Notes: generated by a model from the sequence alone, not told the origin. A stretch of 64,000 nt of DNA from Candidatus Norongarragalinales archaeon (GCA_035288785.1 DATDZF010000009.1:330-64329); one strand, 5' to 3'. Shown: positions 680-10,793, numbered from the stretch's first letter. Made by a program: numbers and translations.

Positions 680-778
680 GTACTCACATTAGAAAAAGGG
701 GAAATTGTTAAAAAAACCTGCCTGTTTGGAAAAAAGCAATAATTCAGGGGTGTAGCAAACGGCATTTCCAGGCAAGCC

Positions 779-1123
779 TTATTTTTTCCGTTTTTCCAGC
801 ACAACCGCGCTTCCATATGCAAAAATATCCATGATTGCAGGCGAGATCTGGGTGGAGCCCATCTGCACGCCTAAAATCGCATTGGCGCCAAGGCTGCGCG
901 CCTGCTCCACAAGGCCATCCACAATGTCCTTCCTGGCCTCGCTAAGCAAATGCCGGTAATGGTGCGAATCCCCTCCGGAAAGGCTCCGTGTCAGGGCTGC
1001 AAAATCTTGAATCACGTTCTTGCTCCTTGCGGTGCTTGTCCAAACAAGACCCTTGTGCTCCTTCACCGCATACCCATCTATTGCCTGCAGCGTCGAAACA
1101 AGCACTTTTTCCATTGGGCTCAC
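779..1123 (-). CDS. YbjQ/UPF0145 family (DUF74) putative heavy-metal-binding protein
   Basis: 114 aa; pentameric YbjQ-like sequence pattern (GANAILGVQMGST...AYGSAVVL); start overlaps stop of cca by ATGA, suggesting translational coupling. Confidence 0.6.
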   Translation of the reverse strand: MSPMEKVLVSTLQAIDGYAVKEHKGLVWTSTARSKNVIQDFAALTRSLSGGDSHHYRHLLSEARKDIVDGLVEQARSLGANAILGVQMGSTQISPAIMDIFAYGSAVVLEKRKK

Positions 1124-2557: not shown

Positions 2558-4711
2558 TTACGACGTTTGCTCGGGACCTGGCGCTTTCGCATCTTTCTTC
2601 TTCCATTCCCCCTTCTTGAAATCCTTCTTCCCCCAGCTTGCCTTGCTCTCGCATTTCGGGTTAAGGCACATCTCAAATGGGCGCTTGCCTTTCCTAATTA
2701 CCTTGATTTCAGGTATCCCGCATACTTTGCAAAGCGTGTTCTTTGGCTCAATGAGCGCATTCCGTGGCAACGGGAATATGTTCCTGCAATTCGGGTAGCT
2801 GCTGCAACCAACAAAGAAGCCGTACCGGCTCTTCCTTATCTGGAGGTCGCCTACCTTGCACAAATTGCACTTCCCGAGTACAGATGCATTCTTTTGCGCA
2901 ATGTCATGGCCTTTCAAAAGGCCCTTCCCGACCTTTTCCTCGTTCAGCTTGAATTCCTCGAGTATCTTCAGGAGCACTTTCCGGCCCTCCTCCACAACCT
3001 CGCTTCCCTTGCGCTGCCCCTTCTCGATCTTTTCAACGCTTTCCTCGAATTCGCGCGTGAGCGTCTCGTTTATGATTTCGGGAACGTTTTCCGATAGCGC
3101 CTCATAGATTGCCATCCCAAAGGAGGTGACCTTAATGCTTTTCTTATCCGTCAAATAGCTCCGGTTGTAGAGCGTATCCACGACAACCGAGCGAGTGGCC
3201 TTAGTCCCCAGGTTTTGCCGCTCTAGCTCGCGTATGATGCTTGCGGGGGTGTAGCGCCTTGGGGGCTGGGTTTCCTTTTCCAGTTTTTCCACCCTCTCAA
3301 TTGCCACCCTTTCGCCCTGCTTGAAATCAGGGAGGATGATTTCCTCCAGGTGCAGGTAAGGTTTGTAGAATGCGAACCAGCCCTCCTCGATTGTGCGCGT
3401 GCCATCGGCAACGAAATTGTGGGATGATATTTTGAGCGTAACTTTCATGCTCTCGCGCTTTGCCTCGGGGGCGAATGTGGACAGGAACCGCCTTACGATC
3501 AAATCATACAATTTGCCCTCCTCGGGGGAGAGCTTTTGTGCAATTTGGCCTGTTGGGTAGATGGAAACGTGCGCGCTATCCGTCTTTTCGCCCTCGTGGG
3601 GAACAAGGCGGTTTTGGGAAATGAGGAGCGATGCGAACTTGGAATAGGCGGCATTTTTCCCTACCTGCTCGATGATTTTGCGAAGGCCCAGCTTTTCGGG
3701 CAATTTCTGCGAAGAGGTGCGGGGATAGCTTATGTATGCGCCCTCGTACAGCGACTGGGCGATCTGCAATGTCCTTGTAGGCGACATCCCAAAATTCCTA
3801 TAGGCCTCCACCTGCATCGTCGTCAAATCGAAGGGGACGGGCTGCAATTGCCTGAATTTGCGGCTCTCGACCCTTTCAACAACGCCGGATTTTTCGGCGC
3901 TGCACTCCGAGTAGACGGCATCCGCCTCCCTGGCATCGAAGAATCTGCCCTTTTCGTGCAGGAAATCGGTCTTCCTTGCATGTGCATGTATCTCGAAGTA
4001 TTTTTCGGGCTTGAATTTGGCGATTTCCTTTTCCTTATGGGCAAGGATGGCAAGTGCGGGCCCTTGCACCCGACCAATGGAGAGCACCTTGAACCTGCCT
4101 GCGCTTCGAAGGGCGTGCATTAGCGCCCGGCTGCAGTTGATACCCCAATAGAAATCCATAATGTGGCGGGCCTCCCCTGCTTCGATTGCCGACACATCAA
4201 GCATTCCGGCACTCGCGTATGCCTCGCGCAAATCCTCCTCCGTAAGAGTGGAAAAGAGCATCCTTTTTGCGCTCTTGCCTTTGCCCATATGGTTTATGAT
4301 GTTCCCTGCAATAAGCGATCCTTCAATGTCATAATCTGTGGCGGATACGAGCTCGGTTGCCTCCTTTCCCAGCTTCTGCAGCACCTGGAGGTATTTCCTA
4401 GTGAAATCGGATGAATCACTAACTTCGCTCGAGGCCTTCCATTCAATGTCGAAAACGGGGTAGCCCGAGCCCTTCTCCTTCTGTGCAAGAGTGTAGACAT
4501 GGCCAACTGCGGGCGCCACATACACCTTCATCCCGTCCTTTTCGAATTCGTAGTAATTGACGCCATGCAGATTGCTGGTTTTGTAATTGGGACTAAGGGC
4601 GGCGGCTATTTTCTGCGCGGTTTTTGGCTTTTCCGAAATTATCAGCTGGACCGTTTGCTTGGTTGCCGGCTTGGTTGAGGGCTTTGATGCCGATTTGGCT
4701 GCTTTTACCAT
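2558..4711 (-). CDS. topA: DNA topoisomerase IA (Topo I/III-like) with Lys/Pro/Ser-rich N-terminal tail and C-terminal zinc ribbons
   Basis: 717 aa; Toprim region (DYDIEGS), active-site Tyr context GAYISYPRTSS, C-terminal CxxC pairs (CNLCKV...CSSYPNC...CKVCG...CLNPKC). Confidence 0.85.
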   Translation of the reverse strand: MVKAAKSASKPSTKPATKQTVQLIISEKPKTAQKIAAALSPNYKTSNLHGVNYYEFEKDGMKVYVAPAVGHVYTLAQKEKGSGYPVFDIEWKASSEVSDSSDFTRKYLQVLQKLGKEATELVSATDYDIEGSLIAGNIINHMGKGKSAKRMLFSTLTEEDLREAYASAGMLDVSAIEAGEARHIMDFYWGINCSRALMHALRSAGRFKVLSIGRVQGPALAILAHKEKEIAKFKPEKYFEIHAHARKTDFLHEKGRFFDAREADAVYSECSAEKSGVVERVESRKFRQLQPVPFDLTTMQVEAYRNFGMSPTRTLQIAQSLYEGAYISYPRTSSQKLPEKLGLRKIIEQVGKNAAYSKFASLLISQNRLVPHEGEKTDSAHVSIYPTGQIAQKLSPEEGKLYDLIVRRFLSTFAPEAKRESMKVTLKISSHNFVADGTRTIEEGWFAFYKPYLHLEEIILPDFKQGERVAIERVEKLEKETQPPRRYTPASIIRELERQNLGTKATRSVVVDTLYNRSYLTDKKSIKVTSFGMAIYEALSENVPEIINETLTREFEESVEKIEKGQRKGSEVVEEGRKVLLKILEEFKLNEEKVGKGLLKGHDIAQKNASVLGKCNLCKVGDLQIRKSRYGFFVGCSSYPNCRNIFPLPRNALIEPKNTLCKVCGIPEIKVIRKGKRPFEMCLNPKCESKASWGKKDFKKGEWKKKDAKAPGPEQTS

Positions 4712-4850: not shown

Positions 4851-5582
4851 CTACTTCAAAACCGTGTATTTGCTCAGGTAGATCTGCACCTTGAGCACCT
4901 CCAGGAAGGGCAGGATGAGGATCGCATTCACCAGCACCGCAAGGTAGCGGGCATAGGGAATGCTTGCCGATAGCTCGATGAAAATTGCCGTATTCAGGAG
5001 AATGAGGAAGACGGCAATTGCAAGGAAGGCCAGGAAGAACGCGAATCGGCGGAATATGACGGATATGCTCATGTAGACGGAATTCGTGATGCTAAGGTCG
5101 TCTATTACCAGCGCCTGGGGCACGAACAGGATGATGATCGATAGCAGCGAGGACATGAAAAGGCCAATTGAGGAGGTGAGCTGGTAATCGTAAAGGAAGA
5201 GGTTAAGCAGGAGGGTTATCACGAACACAAAAAGGAACACCGTGAACATCCGGATGGTATTGGCCTCTATCTTCTCGTGCTCGTAGTGGGTCAGCCGCTT
5301 GAGGGTGCGCTGGGACTTGATCACCAGGTTGATTGCCACAAGGGTGTAGGAAAAAATGGCAAGGGACAGGAGGAACACTGCAAGGGTTATCAGCGCGTCC
5401 AGCGAGGTGATGTCGGTTTGGATGCTGCCGTACCTGAGGAATATGCCCGAAAGCGAAATGAAATTCTCGAACTTGGTTGAGAGCAGGAAAACCAGAGCGA
5501 ATGGAAAGGAGAAAAATGAGATGAGCTTGAAGTTCTTGTTATATGCCTCAAAAGTATGCGAAAGCACTTCAGAAAAGGACAT
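4851..5582 (-). CDS. Polytopic membrane protein of unknown function
   Basis: 243 aa, at least 6 hydrophobic helices, no recognisable catalytic motif. Confidence 0.5.
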   Translation of the reverse strand: MSFSEVLSHTFEAYNKNFKLISFFSFPFALVFLLSTKFENFISLSGIFLRYGSIQTDITSLDALITLAVFLLSLAIFSYTLVAINLVIKSQRTLKRLTHYEHEKIEANTIRMFTVFLFVFVITLLLNLFLYDYQLTSSIGLFMSSLLSIIILFVPQALVIDDLSITNSVYMSISVIFRRFAFFLAFLAIAVFLILLNTAIFIELSASIPYARYLAVLVNAILILPFLEVLKVQIYLSKYTVLK

Positions 5583-5640: not shown

Positions 5641-6204
5641 ATGGAAAGCATGAGAATAGTACTCACGGGGACGCCCGGCACTGGCAAAACGAGCATCGCG
5701 GCGAGCCTTGGGAAGATGCTCCCGTGCGAAGTTGTCGGAGTCAACGAATTGGTAAAAAGGGAAAGGCTCTATTCCCATAAGGAGAATGGGGAATATGTGG
5801 CGGATTTGGCAAAACTGCGCCGGGCGCTTTCAATCATCCTCAAAAATAACAGAAACATCATCCTGGAGGGCCACTTGCTTTGCGACCTTGCGCTGCCGGC
5901 AGATATCGTAATAGTCCTGCGCTGCCATCCAAGGGAGCTGAAAAAACGGCTAAGGCGGCGCAACTACCCCAAATCCAAGATGGAGGGGAACCTGCTTTCC
6001 GAATTACTCGACTATAGCCTGATCAATGCAATTGAGCATTACGGGAAAAGGAAAGTAATGCAGCTTGACACTACCGCAAAAACTTCCGCAAAAAGCATCC
6101 TTGCAAAAATCCACCGCTTCCAAAAAAAGGGGAAGATGCACGAAATAAGGTGGCTGAAAAGGATTAATTACGACCTCGAGGGTCTAGGCATCACGCCCAC
6201 CTGA
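5641..6204 (+). CDS. Fap7/adenylate kinase isoenzyme 6-like nucleotide kinase (COG1936)
   Basis: 187 aa; P-loop GTPGTGKTS at N-terminus, size and layout of archaeal Fap7. Confidence 0.65.
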   Translation: MESMRIVLTGTPGTGKTSIAASLGKMLPCEVVGVNELVKRERLYSHKENGEYVADLAKLRRALSIILKNNRNIILEGHLLCDLALPADIVIVLRCHPRELKKRLRRRNYPKSKMEGNLLSELLDYSLINAIEHYGKRKVMQLDTTAKTSAKSILAKIHRFQKKGKMHEIRWLKRINYDLEGLGITPT

Positions 6205-6236: not shown

Positions 6237-6244
6237 TTTATAAA
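6237..6244 (+). promoter_or_regulatory. TATA-box-like element (TTTATAAA) upstream of the acidic-peptide ORF
   Basis: AT-rich octamer about 55 nt upstream of ATG 6293, with a GGTGGA Shine-Dalgarno-like element at 6281..6286. Confidence 0.35.
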
Positions 6245-6292
6245 CTCCATCCCGCAAATTGTTGCACTTTGCATTCATGAGGTGGATAACCT

Positions 6293-6409
6293 ATGCCCAA
6301 AGGGAAACGCAAGCCCGAAGACGACTTCTACGACGACGAGGAAGATTGGGAGGACGAGGAAGACTGGGACGAGCTTGACGACGAGGATGACGAGGGGGAG
6401 GACGAATAA
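6293..6409 (+). CDS. Small, extremely acidic peptide (38 aa, MPKGKRKPEDDFYDDEEDWEDEEDWDELDDEDDEGEDE)
   Basis: ATG preceded by GGTGGA RBS 7 nt upstream; internal tandem repeat EEDWEDE/EEDWDE; followed by two T5 runs; below the ORF-track cutoff. The listed antisense ORF 6328..6600 is a poly-Ser artefact of the GA-rich codons. Confidence 0.45.
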   Translation: MPKGKRKPEDDFYDDEEDWEDEEDWDELDDEDDEGEDE

Positions 6410-6457
6410 TTTTTTCCTTTTTCACCTATTTTTAAATTCGGGAGGCTAATCCTAAAC

Positions 6458-6979
6458 ATGCGCAGCAAGCAGATAACGGCAGGGATCCGCGCAAGCCTGA
6501 AAAAGCCCCTGGGGGATTTGCTGGATAAGAAAACGCTAATTGGAAGGGTCAGGGAACCGCTAAGCCGCATAATCTCCGTAGGGGATATCACAACCCTCAT
6601 GCTTTTGGGGGAGGGGATTCGGCCCGATGTGGCGATAATCGACTATTTTTGCAAGAGGAAGCCGATAACCGGGGCCCAAAGAAGGAAGCTGGATGCGTTC
6701 AGAGCGCATAAACTTAAAGCAATGAACCCGGCTGGGATGCTGACAGGGGGCATGATGGAAGCATGCAAAAGCGCATTCTCCCCTGAAGCAAAATACCCCC
6801 TTAAAATCATCGTGGACGGCGAGGAGGACCTCGCGGTGCTGCCTGCAATCATCTTTTCGCCCAATAATTCGCTTATCATTTACGGGCAGCCGGATAAGGG
6901 GCCAGTGCTGGTTAAGGCGGATGGAAGGCAAAAGCGCCGGGCCAGAAAATTCTACAAGGAATCAGTAGTGGTAAAATGA
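6458..6979 (+). CDS. DUF359 family protein, probable archaeal GTP-dependent dephospho-CoA kinase
   Basis: 173 aa; VGDITT and PDVAIIDYFCKR motifs resembling the DUF359/COG1019 family. Confidence 0.5.
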   Translation: MRSKQITAGIRASLKKPLGDLLDKKTLIGRVREPLSRIISVGDITTLMLLGEGIRPDVAIIDYFCKRKPITGAQRRKLDAFRAHKLKAMNPAGMLTGGMMEACKSAFSPEAKYPLKIIVDGEEDLAVLPAIIFSPNNSLIIYGQPDKGPVLVKADGRQKRRARKFYKESVVVK

Positions 6980-8241
6980 ACCTCCAGTTTTTAGGCGCGG
7001 CACGCGAGGTTGGCAGGAGCTGCCTTGCTATCGAAGAGGATGGGCTCAATATGCTCTTTGACTGCGGCGTTGCTGCAAACCAGCAAAGCCCGCTGCCTCC
7101 CCTGCAGAACGCGAAAAACCCCCAGGCGATTGCAGTTTCGCATGCGCATCTGGACCATTCCGGCTTCCTTCCCGCGGTTTTCAAGCATTCCAACCCGCCA
7201 GTGCTATGCACATTCCCAACCGTACCTCTGATCAACATGCTTCTGGAGGATATGCAAAAGCTCCTTGATGAGAAGGGGCTTGCGCAGTTCTTCTCGGGCA
7301 CGGACCTTATGCGGCTCAACCGCTCAGTGCTCGCAATGCCCTACGAAATGGAATACGAATTCTTCAATGGCGCAAAATTGCAGTTCTTCGATGCGGGCCA
7401 TATCTCCGGGAGCGCCCAGGTATTCCTTGAGGGGAAGGGGACAAACCTCCTCTATTCGGGGGACATCAATTCCATAAGAACTGAGATGCATAATCCGGCA
7501 AAAATCCCGGATGAGGATATAGGCGTGCTTGTGATGGAGAGCACGTATGGGGGAAGGGAGCATGGCGATAGGAAAAAGCTCGTCAGGGAATTCTGCAAGA
7601 AGATACGGATTGCGGTCGAGCAAAAGCATTCCGTTGTGATACCCTCTTTTGCCGTTGGAAGGACGCAGGAGATATTGCAATTGCTGTATGAGAACGGCCT
7701 GATCCATTACACGGTCATGGACGGGATGGGCATCCGGACAACCGAAACCTACCTCGAATTCCCATCATATTTGCGGAATGCCGGGAGCTTGAGGGAAGCA
7801 TTCGAGGAAGCCGACAAATCCTATGATTCAGAGGATCGCAAGAAATTCGCAAAGGCGGGGAAGATCATTGTTGCAACTGCGGGGATGCTCGAGGGCGGGC
7901 CTGCCCTGGGCTACATTTCACGGCTTCAAAATGCAGGCATCCCTACGCACGTGTTCCTTACCGGCTTCCAGGCGGCGGGGACCAACGGGAGGATGCTGAA
8001 GGAAAAGAAGATGATACGGATCAATGGCAAAATTGTTGAATTCCGGGGGGAGGTGCATTTCTTCGATTTCTCGGCACACTCCGGAAGGAAGGAGCTTTTG
8101 CAATATGCGAAAAAAATCAACCCCAAGAAGATCTTCCTCGTCCACGGCGATTTGGATGAGATGAGCGCGTTCCACGGCACCTTGCTGGAGGAGGGCTTTG
8201 ATTGCAAGATGCCGGAGATGAATGAGAAGTTTGAGGTTTGA
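6976..8241 (+). CDS. Metallo-beta-lactamase/beta-CASP family ribonuclease (aCPSF2-like)
   Basis: 421 aa; MBL motif VSHAHLDHSG, beta-CASP layout; start overlaps the upstream stop (ATGA). Confidence 0.7.
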   Translation: MNLQFLGAAREVGRSCLAIEEDGLNMLFDCGVAANQQSPLPPLQNAKNPQAIAVSHAHLDHSGFLPAVFKHSNPPVLCTFPTVPLINMLLEDMQKLLDEKGLAQFFSGTDLMRLNRSVLAMPYEMEYEFFNGAKLQFFDAGHISGSAQVFLEGKGTNLLYSGDINSIRTEMHNPAKIPDEDIGVLVMESTYGGREHGDRKKLVREFCKKIRIAVEQKHSVVIPSFAVGRTQEILQLLYENGLIHYTVMDGMGIRTTETYLEFPSYLRNAGSLREAFEEADKSYDSEDRKKFAKAGKIIVATAGMLEGGPALGYISRLQNAGIPTHVFLTGFQAAGTNGRMLKEKKMIRINGKIVEFRGEVHFFDFSAHSGRKELLQYAKKINPKKIFLVHGDLDEMSAFHGTLLEEGFDCKMPEMNEKFEV

Positions 8242-8351: not shown

Positions 8352-8370
8352 CCCGAATCTGCACAAAAAT

Positions 8371-8492
8371 GGGGTCAGCGGTCATAGGGGAGGTGGCACA
8401 CCCGATCCCTTTTCGAACTCGGAAGTTAAGACCTCCTGCGATTCGGCGTGTACTTCTCTGGCGAGAGGGAAAACCGGATACCGCTGCTCTCT
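8371..8492 (+). rRNA. rrf: 5S ribosomal RNA
   Basis: Contains the universal 5S segments TCATAG...GCACACCCGATCCCTTTTCGAACTCGGAAGTTAAG; helix I pairs CAGCGG (5') with CCGCTG (3'); ends in a T-run. Exact ends are within about 5 nt. Confidence 0.8.
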
Positions 8493-8593
8493 TTACAACC
8501 CCTAATTTAATCTTTGGCACGTGCATCTTAACTGAAGGATTTCCTAGGTTTGCAGTAAAAACCATTATTAAAATAACGAGCGCATATCTTCCC

Positions 8594-9772
8594 ATGCCCC
8601 CACTCGAAAGAGACGTGATTTTTTCTAAAATTTTCAATGATGAACAGCGCAGGCTCCACCGGGAACTTAACCGGTTTTCGAGGAGGCACATCGCCCCATT
8701 CCTTGTGGAGATGAACGAGAGGGAAGAGGTATCACCGGAGCTGATCAAAAGGCTTCGGCGAAGGAAGCTCTTTGGGATCGGCATCCCGAAAAAGTACGGG
8801 GGCAGGGGCGGGGGCTTGGTCAGCGCATGCATCCGCGATGAAGCGCTAGGGTATGGCTCCGGGGCCGTTGGTCTTCTGGTAGGTGTTCCTGCTGGCGTTG
8901 CCGCGAGCACCATCCTGTTTGCGGGGACGGAAAAGCAAAAGCAGAATTGGGTAAGGCAGATTGCTGCGGGAACCATAGCAACTTTCCAGCTAACAGAGCC
9001 AGACAGGGGAAGCGATACCGACGTGCAATCCACAGTAAGGTTCACCGGAAGGGACGCCACGCTCAATGGGAACAAGGTATTCGTAACCAACGGCAAATTG
9101 GGCAAATTCGGGGTGGTAATTGCGCGAACCCCTCACCCTACAATAAAGGATAAGTTCCAGAATGTTGCGGTCATCGTGCCCGACATAGAAAAGTACATTG
9201 GGGAAAAGCATGGAAGGAAGATGGGGCTCAAAGCCTCACATACGAGCATTTTCCATTATGTCGATACGCCGCTCTCCTTCAAGCACGTGCTGGGCTTGAA
9301 GAGGGGGATTGGGATTGGCAGAAAAGCGGCATTCATGGCGCTGGATAAAAGCAGGGTGACGCTATCTGCAATTGCGCTCGGGATGGCAAGGCGCGCATAT
9401 GACGAGACCCTTGCCCATTACAAGGGGCAAGTCGCACGGAGGGAGCTCTCAGATGAGCAAATGGAATACCGCAGCAGCCTGATTGGGAAAATGAATAAGG
9501 ATATTCAGGCAATGCGGAGGCTGGTCTACACGGTTGCCGCGGAGTACGCCCCAACACGAGATTTTTCTGGCAAATCCATTGGCACGAAAATATTCGCATC
9601 CGAGACCCTGAACAAAATCATACAGAACGGATTGAAGGTAATTGGCGCGCCAGCCTATACTGAAAACCACCCGTTGGGCGTGCTATCTAATGACGCCAAA
9701 GTGTTCGAGATTTTCGAGGGAGCAAATGAGGCGATTTTGGCCGCCCTGGCAAGGCAATTGACTGAAAAATAA
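8594..9772 (+). CDS. Acyl-CoA dehydrogenase
   Basis: ACAD N-terminal and middle motifs (IPKKYGG, LTEPDRGSDT); start moved to Met 8594 (MPPLERD) because the track ORF from 8369 would run through the 5S rRNA gene. Confidence 0.75.
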   Translation: MPPLERDVIFSKIFNDEQRRLHRELNRFSRRHIAPFLVEMNEREEVSPELIKRLRRRKLFGIGIPKKYGGRGGGLVSACIRDEALGYGSGAVGLLVGVPAGVAASTILFAGTEKQKQNWVRQIAAGTIATFQLTEPDRGSDTDVQSTVRFTGRDATLNGNKVFVTNGKLGKFGVVIARTPHPTIKDKFQNVAVIVPDIEKYIGEKHGRKMGLKASHTSIFHYVDTPLSFKHVLGLKRGIGIGRKAAFMALDKSRVTLSAIALGMARRAYDETLAHYKGQVARRELSDEQMEYRSSLIGKMNKDIQAMRRLVYTVAAEYAPTRDFSGKSIGTKIFASETLNKIIQNGLKVIGAPAYTENHPLGVLSNDAKVFEIFEGANEAILAALARQLTEK

Positions 9773-9885: not shown

Positions 9886-10641
9886 TTATGCGGATTCCAC
9901 CCTTGGCGCAAGGAAGAACACGAACTCCGCCTCGGAAATCTTGTAGGAGAGCCGGATTGGCTTGTTGGTTCCGAACTCTATGTGTACTGGCTCGGCTTCA
10001 ATGGCTGCGCGGGTCATCTTGTCCAGGTATTCCGCAGGGTACATCGCCTTGGTGGCAGATGCCGCCTTGACCTCCAGGTCCTTGAGGGTCTTCGTATTGT
10101 TCTCTACCTTCAGGTCCCCTGAATCGCCGTGCGCCTCTATGTTGAACTGGCCATCCTGTGCTTCCATCTGCAGGTGGGATGAAACTAGCACCACATCCTT
10201 GAGCATTTCCTTGAAATGGCCCGCCTTGATCTTGACAGCTGTCTCGAGCTGCACCTTGGGCTCTTTTGGGATGGACGAATCGCGCAAATCAAGCAGCGGG
10301 AGCTTGAAATCGCGCTTGGAATCGCCCGCAAAATCAATGAGCAGCCTATTGCCCTCCTTCTCGTCAAAAACAATGGTGACTTTCTCGGAGCCCTTGCTCC
10401 TTGAAAGCACTTTTGAAAGGTCCTGCAGGTTCAGTGAAATCGTCCGTGGCTCGTCCACATCGAAGGACGCAAACGCATGCCCCTTTGGCAGCCTGAAATC
10501 AACCATCGCTATCTGCGAGGGGTCAAGTGAGCGCAGGTGGATCCCTTCCTTTGAAATCTCGAAGCTGCCCTCATCTATCAGGTTGCCAACAGCGTCAATG
10601 CACTGCTTGAAGAATCGCGCATCCTTGAATGAGAATTCCAT
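9886..10641 (-). CDS. pcn: DNA polymerase sliding clamp PCNA
   Basis: 251 aa from Met 10641 (MEFSFKDARFFKQCIDAV...); PCNA two-domain length and N-terminal pattern. Confidence 0.8.
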   Translation of the reverse strand: MEFSFKDARFFKQCIDAVGNLIDEGSFEISKEGIHLRSLDPSQIAMVDFRLPKGHAFASFDVDEPRTISLNLQDLSKVLSRSKGSEKVTIVFDEKEGNRLLIDFAGDSKRDFKLPLLDLRDSSIPKEPKVQLETAVKIKAGHFKEMLKDVVLVSSHLQMEAQDGQFNIEAHGDSGDLKVENNTKTLKDLEVKAASATKAMYPAEYLDKMTRAAIEAEPVHIEFGTNKPIRLSYKISEAEFVFFLAPRVESA

Positions 10642-10793
10642 AACCCCCACACCCCTTGCTTGAAAAGAATACAAAAGCATTCCCGATGAAAGTTATTAAA
10701 GATTTGGCTTTGATGGGGATTGCAAATCAGGTGGGGCGATTTAGTTTAATTGCGGAAGTTGCGGATGGGAAACTCCGAACAATTGCGGTCCAA

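Follow-up and report, generated by a model that had tools for sequence, protein, structure and literature searches.

An undescribed family of hyper-acidic microproteins (37–39 residues) of Micrarchaeota, a candidate disordered docking peptide

The window analysed here is a stretch of 64,000 nucleotides from Candidatus Norongarragalinales archaeon (GCA_035288785.1 DATDZF010000009.1:330-64329). It carries a very short ORF coding for a highly acidic peptide, located between a Fap7-like kinase gene and a DUF359 gene and followed on the same strand by a ribonuclease gene and a 5S rRNA gene. The features of this region are:

5641..6204 (+), Fap7/AK6-like P-loop kinase (AAA_18), the upstream neighbour; Pfam AAA_18, 9e-21
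6238..6245 (+), TATA-like box TTTATAAA of the small gene, 56 nt upstream of its ATG; putative promoter
6279..6286 (+), Shine-Dalgarno-like site GAGGTGGA, 14 nt upstream of the ATG
6293..6409 (+), reading frame for the 38-aa hyper-acidic microprotein, from ATG through TAA
6335..6369 (+), 18-nt tandem repeat coding two D-E-E-D-W-E units (Tandem Repeats Finder)
6410..6437 (+), T-rich spacer, terminator-like and containing a second putative promoter
6458..6979 (+), DUF359, GTP-dependent dephospho-CoA kinase (DPCK) family; Pfam DUF359, 4e-31, and NCBIfam
6976..8241 (+), beta-CASP ribonuclease without KH domains (aCPSF2-like); Pfam Lactamase_B, Beta-Casp and RMMBL
8374..8489 (+), stand-alone 5S rRNA gene, 133 nt past the ribonuclease gene; Rfam RF00001, 68 bits

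The deduced peptide, MPKGKRKPEDDFYDDEEDWEDEEDWDELDDEDDEGEDE (38 aa, 6293..6409, plus strand), contains 24 Asp/Glu and 4 Lys/Arg residues and has a net charge of about -20. The four basic residues all lie within its 8-residue head, while 23 of the last 29 residues are Asp/Glu, the other six being F, Y, W, W, L and G. The internal repeat at 6335-6369 (period 18, 1.9 copies, 94% matches in Tandem Repeats Finder) includes both Trp codons, at 6347-6349 (W19) and 6365-6367 (W25). No other stretch, in any of the six frames of the 64-kb window, reaches 11 Asp/Glu per 20 residues, and when the window was shuffled (n = 20) the best 29-residue stretch had 8–11 Asp/Glu, compared with 23 in the real peptide.

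The original prediction, made from the DNA sequence, had described a short acidic ORF within 6237-6425, with its own TATA-like box, ribosome-binding site and oligo-T terminator and with an internal EEDW repeat, lying between a Fap7-like kinase gene and DPCK and beta-CASP RNase genes. The ORF is indeed present, the three kinds of signal were found at 6238-6245, at 6279-6286 and as T-runs from 6410, the repeat exists at the DNA level as an 18-nt tandem coding DEEDWE twice, and the identities of the neighbours agree with their Pfam, NCBIfam and PDB matches. Its count of 26 Asp/Glu among the last 29 residues was wrong, the correct number being 23.

The upstream kinase also matches NCBIfam PRK03839, below the cutoff of that model, and its best PDB match is 4cvn/4cw7 (7e-24), entries of Fap7 from Pyrococcus abyssi, with adenylate kinase isoenzyme 6 next. 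The start of the beta-CASP ribonuclease gene overlaps the stop of DUF359; its product matches positions 177-613 of the aCPSF1 model, and its PDB matches are CPSF-like RNases, TTHA0252, INTS11 and FttA. The same protein scores 231 bits against the NCBIfam model of type VII CRISPR Cas14 (cutoff 800) and resembles Cas14 structures (8yhd) to about the same degree as CPSF-type RNases. This likeness is one of shared fold and family and not of CRISPR function, which is not supported because the score is far below 800 and no CRISPR array was seen. A mechanically called ORF (8369..9772, 467 aa) begins inside the 5S rRNA gene; gene callers place the start of this acyl-CoA dehydrogenase about 225 nt further downstream, giving a protein of 392 aa. 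ARAGORN detected no tRNA gene in the whole 64-kb window.

Genes for topoisomerase IA (2558-4711) and PCNA (9886-10680) lie on the opposite strand within 4 kb of the ORF; the former remains linked in relatives, and other genes separate both from the ORF. Also on the minus strand, at 4851-5582, is a gene for a 243-aa multi-pass membrane protein without a Pfam family. It has 46 homologues (from 85% down to 27% identity), which are named Micrarchaeota, Micrarchaeia or Norongarragalinales, and the protein appears to be specific to Micrarchaeota. Across the clade its gene adjoins the Fap7-like gene divergently and lies near that of topoisomerase IA.

Further copies of the small ORF were collected by four routes: 1) a protein search with a padded query, which gave 9 candidates; 2) a scan anchored on DUF359, with one genome per species; 3) a scan of metagenome contigs with a degenerate DNA pattern (F-Y, five acidic codons, W, five acidic codons, W), which gave 2 loci, both of close relatives; and 4) look-ups of homologues of the neighbouring genes. 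Fourteen public contigs encode the peptide in identical form, and groundwater samples, e.g. SRR3989344, SRR2090153, ERZ27254767 and those from Hainich, carry the exact gene. In total, 11 distinct DNA versions of the ORF were obtained. Two of these, L093 and L094, were reached through the linked membrane protein, which is there 55% and 51% identical, respectively, to that of the window. All loci carrying the ORF are of the Micrarchaeota type (DPANN), and those with a name are assigned to Candidatus Micrarchaeota. Among the 71 loci of the DUF359-anchored scan, the ORF was present only in the two full Micrarchaeota loci; two other Micrarchaeota loci (L080 and L082) begin inside DUF359 and are thus uninformative on the ORF, and in none of the 67 loci that came from other archaea did an acidic ORF occur within 4 kb. 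Two loci from more distant Micrarchaeota (L095 and L096) show broken synteny and have no acidic ORF within 10 kb of the locus.

Gene callers predict the ORF on ENA, Logan and NCBI contigs without giving it a name or family, so that the statement that nothing is annotated here stands for name and family but not for the gene itself. When seven of the family peptides were looked up in a large protein collection (15 billion sequences), six were absent, and for this reason the breadth of the family is probably underestimated.

Wherever the locus could be read in a relative, it contains the ORF in the same place, uninterrupted and in frame, which answers the question of conservation that the original prediction had raised. 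Nine of the versions form a close clade, for which variable sites were counted by codon position over the first 31 codons: 2 were at first, 1 at second and 25 at third positions. Mean pairwise pS in this clade is 0.87 (saturated) versus a pN of 0.027. Residues 1–27 are invariant save for single Asp/Glu swaps at positions 15, 24 and 26, so that even the choice between Asp and Glu is largely kept, whereas fourfold-degenerate third positions vary freely, transversions included, with all four bases being used at P2. This codon-position pattern and the low pN point to strong purifying selection on the protein.

The neighbouring genes have the following ranges of identity to the copies in the window:

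Fap7-like kinase (AAA_18), 51–56%
DUF359, 43–53%
Beta-CASP RNase, 57–80%
Topoisomerase IA, 72–86%

Judged by these alignments, the 38-residue polyanion is the best-conserved gene of the neighbourhood.

The predicted fold of the mRNA (window 6268-6440) has a z of -0.42 relative to shuffled sequences, i.e. no unusual structure, and Rfam gave no credible match to the ORF region, the sole match being far below threshold; a non-coding RNA was rejected on these two grounds. The fold contains a single sizeable hairpin, at 6384-6424 (plus strand), in which the 3' end of the ORF, rich in purines (GAGGGGGAGGACG), can base-pair with the U-rich segment that follows the stop codon; this hairpin may be incidental because the fold as a whole is not unusual.

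It is conceivable that the ORF is a spurious one in a GA-rich spacer, or that a non-coding RNA happens to be open in this frame, given that (GAN)n DNA such as that of the ORF region is open in several frames and that the ORF is very short and without a database family. We consider this hardly credible, since the 2, 1, 25 codon-position pattern fits only this frame, the alternative frames contain stops or are unconserved in relatives, the start, stop, Shine-Dalgarno site and TATA-like box are kept in 11 versions, and there is no signal of RNA structure. From these comparisons the ORF is almost certainly a real protein-coding gene under selection, and the view that it was a deliberate gene rather than noise is borne out by the pattern of purifying selection.

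All 11 versions have a TATA-like box (TTTATAAA or TTTAAAAA) 51–60 nt upstream of the ATG and a GAGGTG, AGGTGA or GGGGTG site 11–14 nt upstream of it. Downstream of the ORF in the window there are three runs of at least five T (6410-6415, 6418-6422 and 6429-6433), the first directly after the TAA, which resemble an oligo-T terminator of archaea. A second TATA-like box, TTTTTAAA, is located at 6429-6436, 22–29 nt upstream of the DUF359 ATG, and is likely to be the promoter for a leaderless DUF359 mRNA. The spacer following the ORF is T-rich, with a sequence that is not conserved among the versions. In the close clade it is 48–97 nt long, with a second TATA-like box at its end, about 25 nt ahead of the start codon of DUF359, and all nine versions have 1–4 T-runs within about 40 nt of the stop codon. 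This layout is compatible with a short transcript of its own for the small gene and a leaderless mRNA for DUF359. No T-run was found in the ORF-DUF359 gaps of L093 (35 nt) and L094 (103 nt), and since these gaps lack T-runs it is likely that the ORF is co-transcribed there with DUF359, as the first cistron of an operon. The claim that the small gene is a stand-alone unit is thus plausible for the clade of the window, with its T-runs and second TATA-like box, but probably does not extend to L093 and L094.

The same-strand order of Fap7-like kinase, small ORF, DUF359 and beta-CASP RNase was observed in every informative locus, and DUF359 starts 35–103 nt after the small ORF in every locus long enough to show it. 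In L014, an additional ORF of unknown function (97 aa, 710-1003, plus strand) lies between the Fap7-like gene and the acidic ORF; therefore, the acidic ORF travels with DUF359 and not with the kinase gene. A 5S rRNA gene is found past the RNase gene on the same strand in 5 of the 7 related loci that extend beyond the RNase, either directly after it (L088 2305-2420, L016 5899-6013 and L093 1868-1983, minus strand) or with one extra ORF in between (L089 4879-4994 and L094 1499-1613, minus strand); in the remaining two, L012 and L087, no 5S rRNA gene was found after the RNase gene. The linkage of Fap7-like kinase, RNase and 5S rRNA suggests a maturation cluster.

In both euryarchaeal-type loci examined (L090 3796-4576 and L091 3814-4540), the gene directly upstream of DUF359 is that of Spt4, within an operon encoding aIF2-gamma, PIN, RpoE', Spt4, DUF359, S24e and S27ae. 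In the Micrarchaeota clade DUF359 has been relocated, and the acidic ORF fills the usual slot of Spt4 (window 6293-6979). Searching the 64-kb window for Spt4 by tblastn with the L090 and L091 proteins gave nothing significant. A remnant of Spt4 (Pfam PF06093) was considered for the peptide and rejected, as the peptide has no Cys, no Pfam match and no similarity to Spt4. In two Hadarchaeota loci (L053 5147-5413 and L065 5223-5444, both on the plus strand) we noted proteins with an acidic N-terminal extension of about 30–45 residues, e.g. MSEEIDLEESEEETEEAEEEEVE..., located where eukaryotes have the ubiquitin fusion; in L053 it precedes an S27ae-type zinc ribbon, and the copy in L065 is broken by masked bases.

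Searches with the peptide sequences were negative: 1) hmmscan against Pfam-A, at E values up to 10, gave no family for three family members; 2) the NCBIfam search gave no match; 3) phmmer against all PDB chains, a set that presumably includes DSS1 and Sem1, gave no match at E values up to 10; 4) a profile search covering 1.84 billion representative proteins recovered nothing beyond the cluster of the family itself, a result that weighs little because proteins this short are mostly missing from that collection; and 5) a full-text literature search for the peptide motifs gave no match, and a keyword search for archaeal small acidic proteins gave nothing relevant. In Smith-Waterman comparisons with unverified DSS1/Sem1 sequences, z was -0.2 to 1.6 in 5 of 6 cases and 2.9 in one (uncorrected). 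Homology to DSS1/Sem1 was rejected, the alignment scores lying within those of composition-preserving shuffles, and by Pfam, PDB, NCBIfam and this alignment no homology to any characterized acidic microprotein was detected. A PIP-box (Q-x-x-[LIVM]-x-x-[FY]-[FY]) was likewise rejected, as the candidate segment R6-K7-P8-E9-D10-D11-F12-Y13 has neither Gln at position 1 nor a hydrophobic residue at position 4. On the basis of these searches, the peptide represents an undescribed, lineage-restricted microprotein family of Micrarchaeota. AlphaFold2 predicted no secondary structure for the peptide alone (mean pLDDT 61).

The deeper members show which residues are kept when the acidic background changes. 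The peptides of L093 (MPKQKKKDEGDDFDEEEDWEEEEDWDTEEDLEDDDEE) and L094 (MPKGKKKPKDDDAFDEDEDEDWEEDEDWEEDEDLDEDEE) retain the basic head, one Phe, the spacing of 6 between the tryptophans, one Leu and a net charge of -20, while their Asp/Glu pattern drifts, and the Phe-Tyr pair of the close clade is a single Phe in both. The following properties are common to all 11 versions: i) a length of 37–39 residues, ii) the basic head MPKxKxK, iii) an acidic tract beginning at residue 8–10, iv) one Phe 6–8 residues ahead of the first Trp, v) two Trp exactly 6 apart, with Asp before each and Asp or Glu after, vi) one Leu or Ile 3–6 residues past the second Trp, vii) an all-acidic, variable C-terminus, and viii) a net charge of -18 to -20.

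With 24 of 38 residues being carboxylates and the net charge kept at -18 to -20 across the versions, the peptide could be taken for a cation binder or buffer (for Mg2+, Ca2+, Fe or polyamines) of low affinity and high capacity that acts through carboxylate density alone. Such a function is very unlikely in our view. Composition alone would suffice for it, yet the order of residues, the positions of the aromatics and, within the close clade, the choice of Asp versus Glu are conserved; in addition, the peptide has no His or Cys, and the conserved cluster contains no transporter or metalloprotein gene. The roles that the original prediction had offered for such peptides (nucleic-acid mimic, acidic tail binding histones or ribosomes, metal binder) are generic ones. 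Specific docking is favoured over the plain binding of metals or other cations by the Trp spacing, which is invariant, and by the conserved Phe and Leu.

Fixed aromatic and aliphatic anchors with an exact spacing, set in a drifting Asp/Glu background, argue for a disordered docking peptide. By analogy, we favour a polyanion that would bind as DSS1 does, acting in trans as a nucleic-acid mimic or an electrostatic chaperone. The microprotein would be intrinsically disordered when alone, and its acidic chain would follow a positively charged, normally nucleic-acid-binding surface of a conserved partner, with the Trp and Phe side chains entering pockets or stacking in place of bases. In mimicking RNA or DNA, it might either shield the surface, as a chaperone, or compete nucleic acid off it, as a regulator. 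We infer the disorder in vivo, the binding mode and the identity of the partner. The fact that no gene of the neighbourhood is better conserved, in archaea that are symbiotic and have reduced genomes, suggests an important interaction with a very conserved partner.

The chief rival in terms of mechanism, also prompted by the position of the ORF, is a cis-acting leader of the MgtL type, in which translation of the Asp/Glu-rich run would destabilize or stall the ribosome and so tune the expression of DUF359 and the beta-CASP RNase to Mg2+ or translation capacity, the released peptide being without function. The location of the ORF, in all cases 35–103 nt upstream of DUF359 and with no T-run in between in L093 and L094, is compatible with such a role, as is the probable co-transcription in these two loci. 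Ribosome destabilization by acidic runs has, to our knowledge, not been described in archaea. In bacteria and eukaryotes, runs of Asp/Glu near the N-terminus are reported to abort translation (PMC9718836). We nevertheless regard the leader as quite improbable. In the clade of the window the ORF is followed by terminator-like T-runs of its own and a separate TATA-like box precedes DUF359, the fold of the mRNA lends no support to alternative leader structures, and a destabilizing run would need no invariant basic head, no exact W-x5-W spacing and no conserved Phe and Leu. For a trans-acting peptide, too, the N-proximal acidic run, which begins at residue 9, means that efficient synthesis is not guaranteed; archaeal ribosomes confronted with a run of a kind poorly translated in bacteria and eukaryotes offer a natural test.

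Returning to the docking peptide, its most likely target would be a component of RNA or ribosome maturation, e.g. a basic ribosomal protein or the beta-CASP RNase, because the ORF lies in a same-strand cluster with a Fap7-like ribosome-assembly kinase, an RNase and a 5S rRNA gene, which is an argument from neighbourhood. Two observations count against this model: DUF359, the most tightly linked gene, encodes an enzyme of CoA synthesis with no obvious need of a polyanion, and with topoisomerase IA and PCNA nearby a target on the DNA side is equally compatible with the position. In the latter case the peptide would mimic DNA toward, or chaperone, a histone or Alba-type protein, the OB folds of RPA/SSB, topoisomerase IA or PCNA-associated factors, on the model of DSS1 toward RPA and BRCA2 or of prothymosin-alpha toward linker histone. 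DSS1 has been suggested to be a DNA mimic toward RPA (PMC6954417), the topoisomerase IA and PCNA genes are within 4 kb, with topoisomerase linked in relatives, and an invariant peptide implies a very conserved partner, for which DNA-handling proteins qualify. However, both of these genes are on the opposite strand with other genes between, the ORF is tightly linked on its own strand to the genes for the Fap7-like kinase, DUF359, the beta-CASP RNase and 5S rRNA, and the peptide lacks a PIP-box. A DNA-side target, the main variant of the model, therefore seems unlikely to us.

Taken together, the explanation that we prefer, comprising a real translated gene, a trans-acting mechanism as a disordered polyanion and a target in RNA or ribosome maturation, is put forward tentatively, at slightly below an even chance for the whole. 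Its most specific form would be the first archaeal analogue, not a descendant, of the DSS1/prothymosin type of polyanionic disordered hub, i.e. an RNA-mimicking escort of a ribosomal protein or a gate of the beta-CASP RNase, serving the maturation of 5S or small-subunit rRNA in DPANN archaea from a previously unnoticed ribosome-maturation cluster; as a whole this more detailed proposal is speculative and rather improbable.

Acidic disordered docking peptides are as a kind already known from eukaryotes and bacteria, but we know of none, DSS1-like or prothymosin-like, that has been characterized in archaea. Should the partner prove to be a ribosomal protein, an RNase or a chromatin protein, the peptide would be an archaeal electrostatic chaperone or mimic of the DSS1-like or prothymosin-like type. 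If the partner model is true, it would moreover illustrate, in a compact natural case, how the exact spacing of Trp in an acidic chain encodes specificity. Genes this short are under-represented in protein databases, and families such as this one go unseen.

Among known systems, leaders of the MgtL type are likewise short ORFs with an N-proximal Asp/Glu run immediately upstream of other genes (PMC9718836). Unlike them, the ORF described here has, in the clade of the window, promoter-like, Shine-Dalgarno and terminator-like signals of its own and also conserved non-acidic residues, and no alternative RNA structures were detected. With Spt4 (RpoE'') it shares being a small gene in the same position relative to DUF359, a likeness that is positional only, as Spt4 is a Cys4 zinc ribbon of 61–66 aa and the peptide has no Cys.

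Polyanionic competitors include prothymosin-alpha, the acidic C-terminal domain of the delta subunit of Bacillus RNA polymerase, HMGB1 and the acidic tails of SSB and T7 gp2.5. The Asp/Glu tracts in systems of this type compete with nucleic acid or chaperone basic proteins, and in several of them a lysine-rich segment lies close by or an aromatic residue stands at the terminus. In all these systems, they are tails of folded proteins or belong to proteins of about 110 residues, whereas here a 38-residue polyanion is the whole product, and no sequence relationship to polyanions of the prothymosin-alpha type was found.

The partners of DSS1/SEM1, such as the BRCA2 OB folds, the proteasome lid and TREX-2, are eukaryotic. 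DSS1, a small and strongly acidic protein, contains seven aromatic residues, W27, W39 and W43 among them, and binds its partners by ionic and aromatic contacts, in keeping with its proposed mimicry of DNA toward RPA (PMC6954417). The likeness to the eukaryotic DSS1/Sem1 proteins (70–90 aa) is one of kind only: both are very small, acidic and, for the peptide by prediction, disordered, with conserved Trp/Phe in runs of Asp/Glu, and the binding of basic or OB-fold surfaces by DSS1/Sem1 is the mode proposed for the peptide as well. The peptide differs in being archaeal and half as long, in having a basic head that DSS1 lacks, and in a Trp-Trp spacing of 6 as against 4 in DSS1 (W39/W43).
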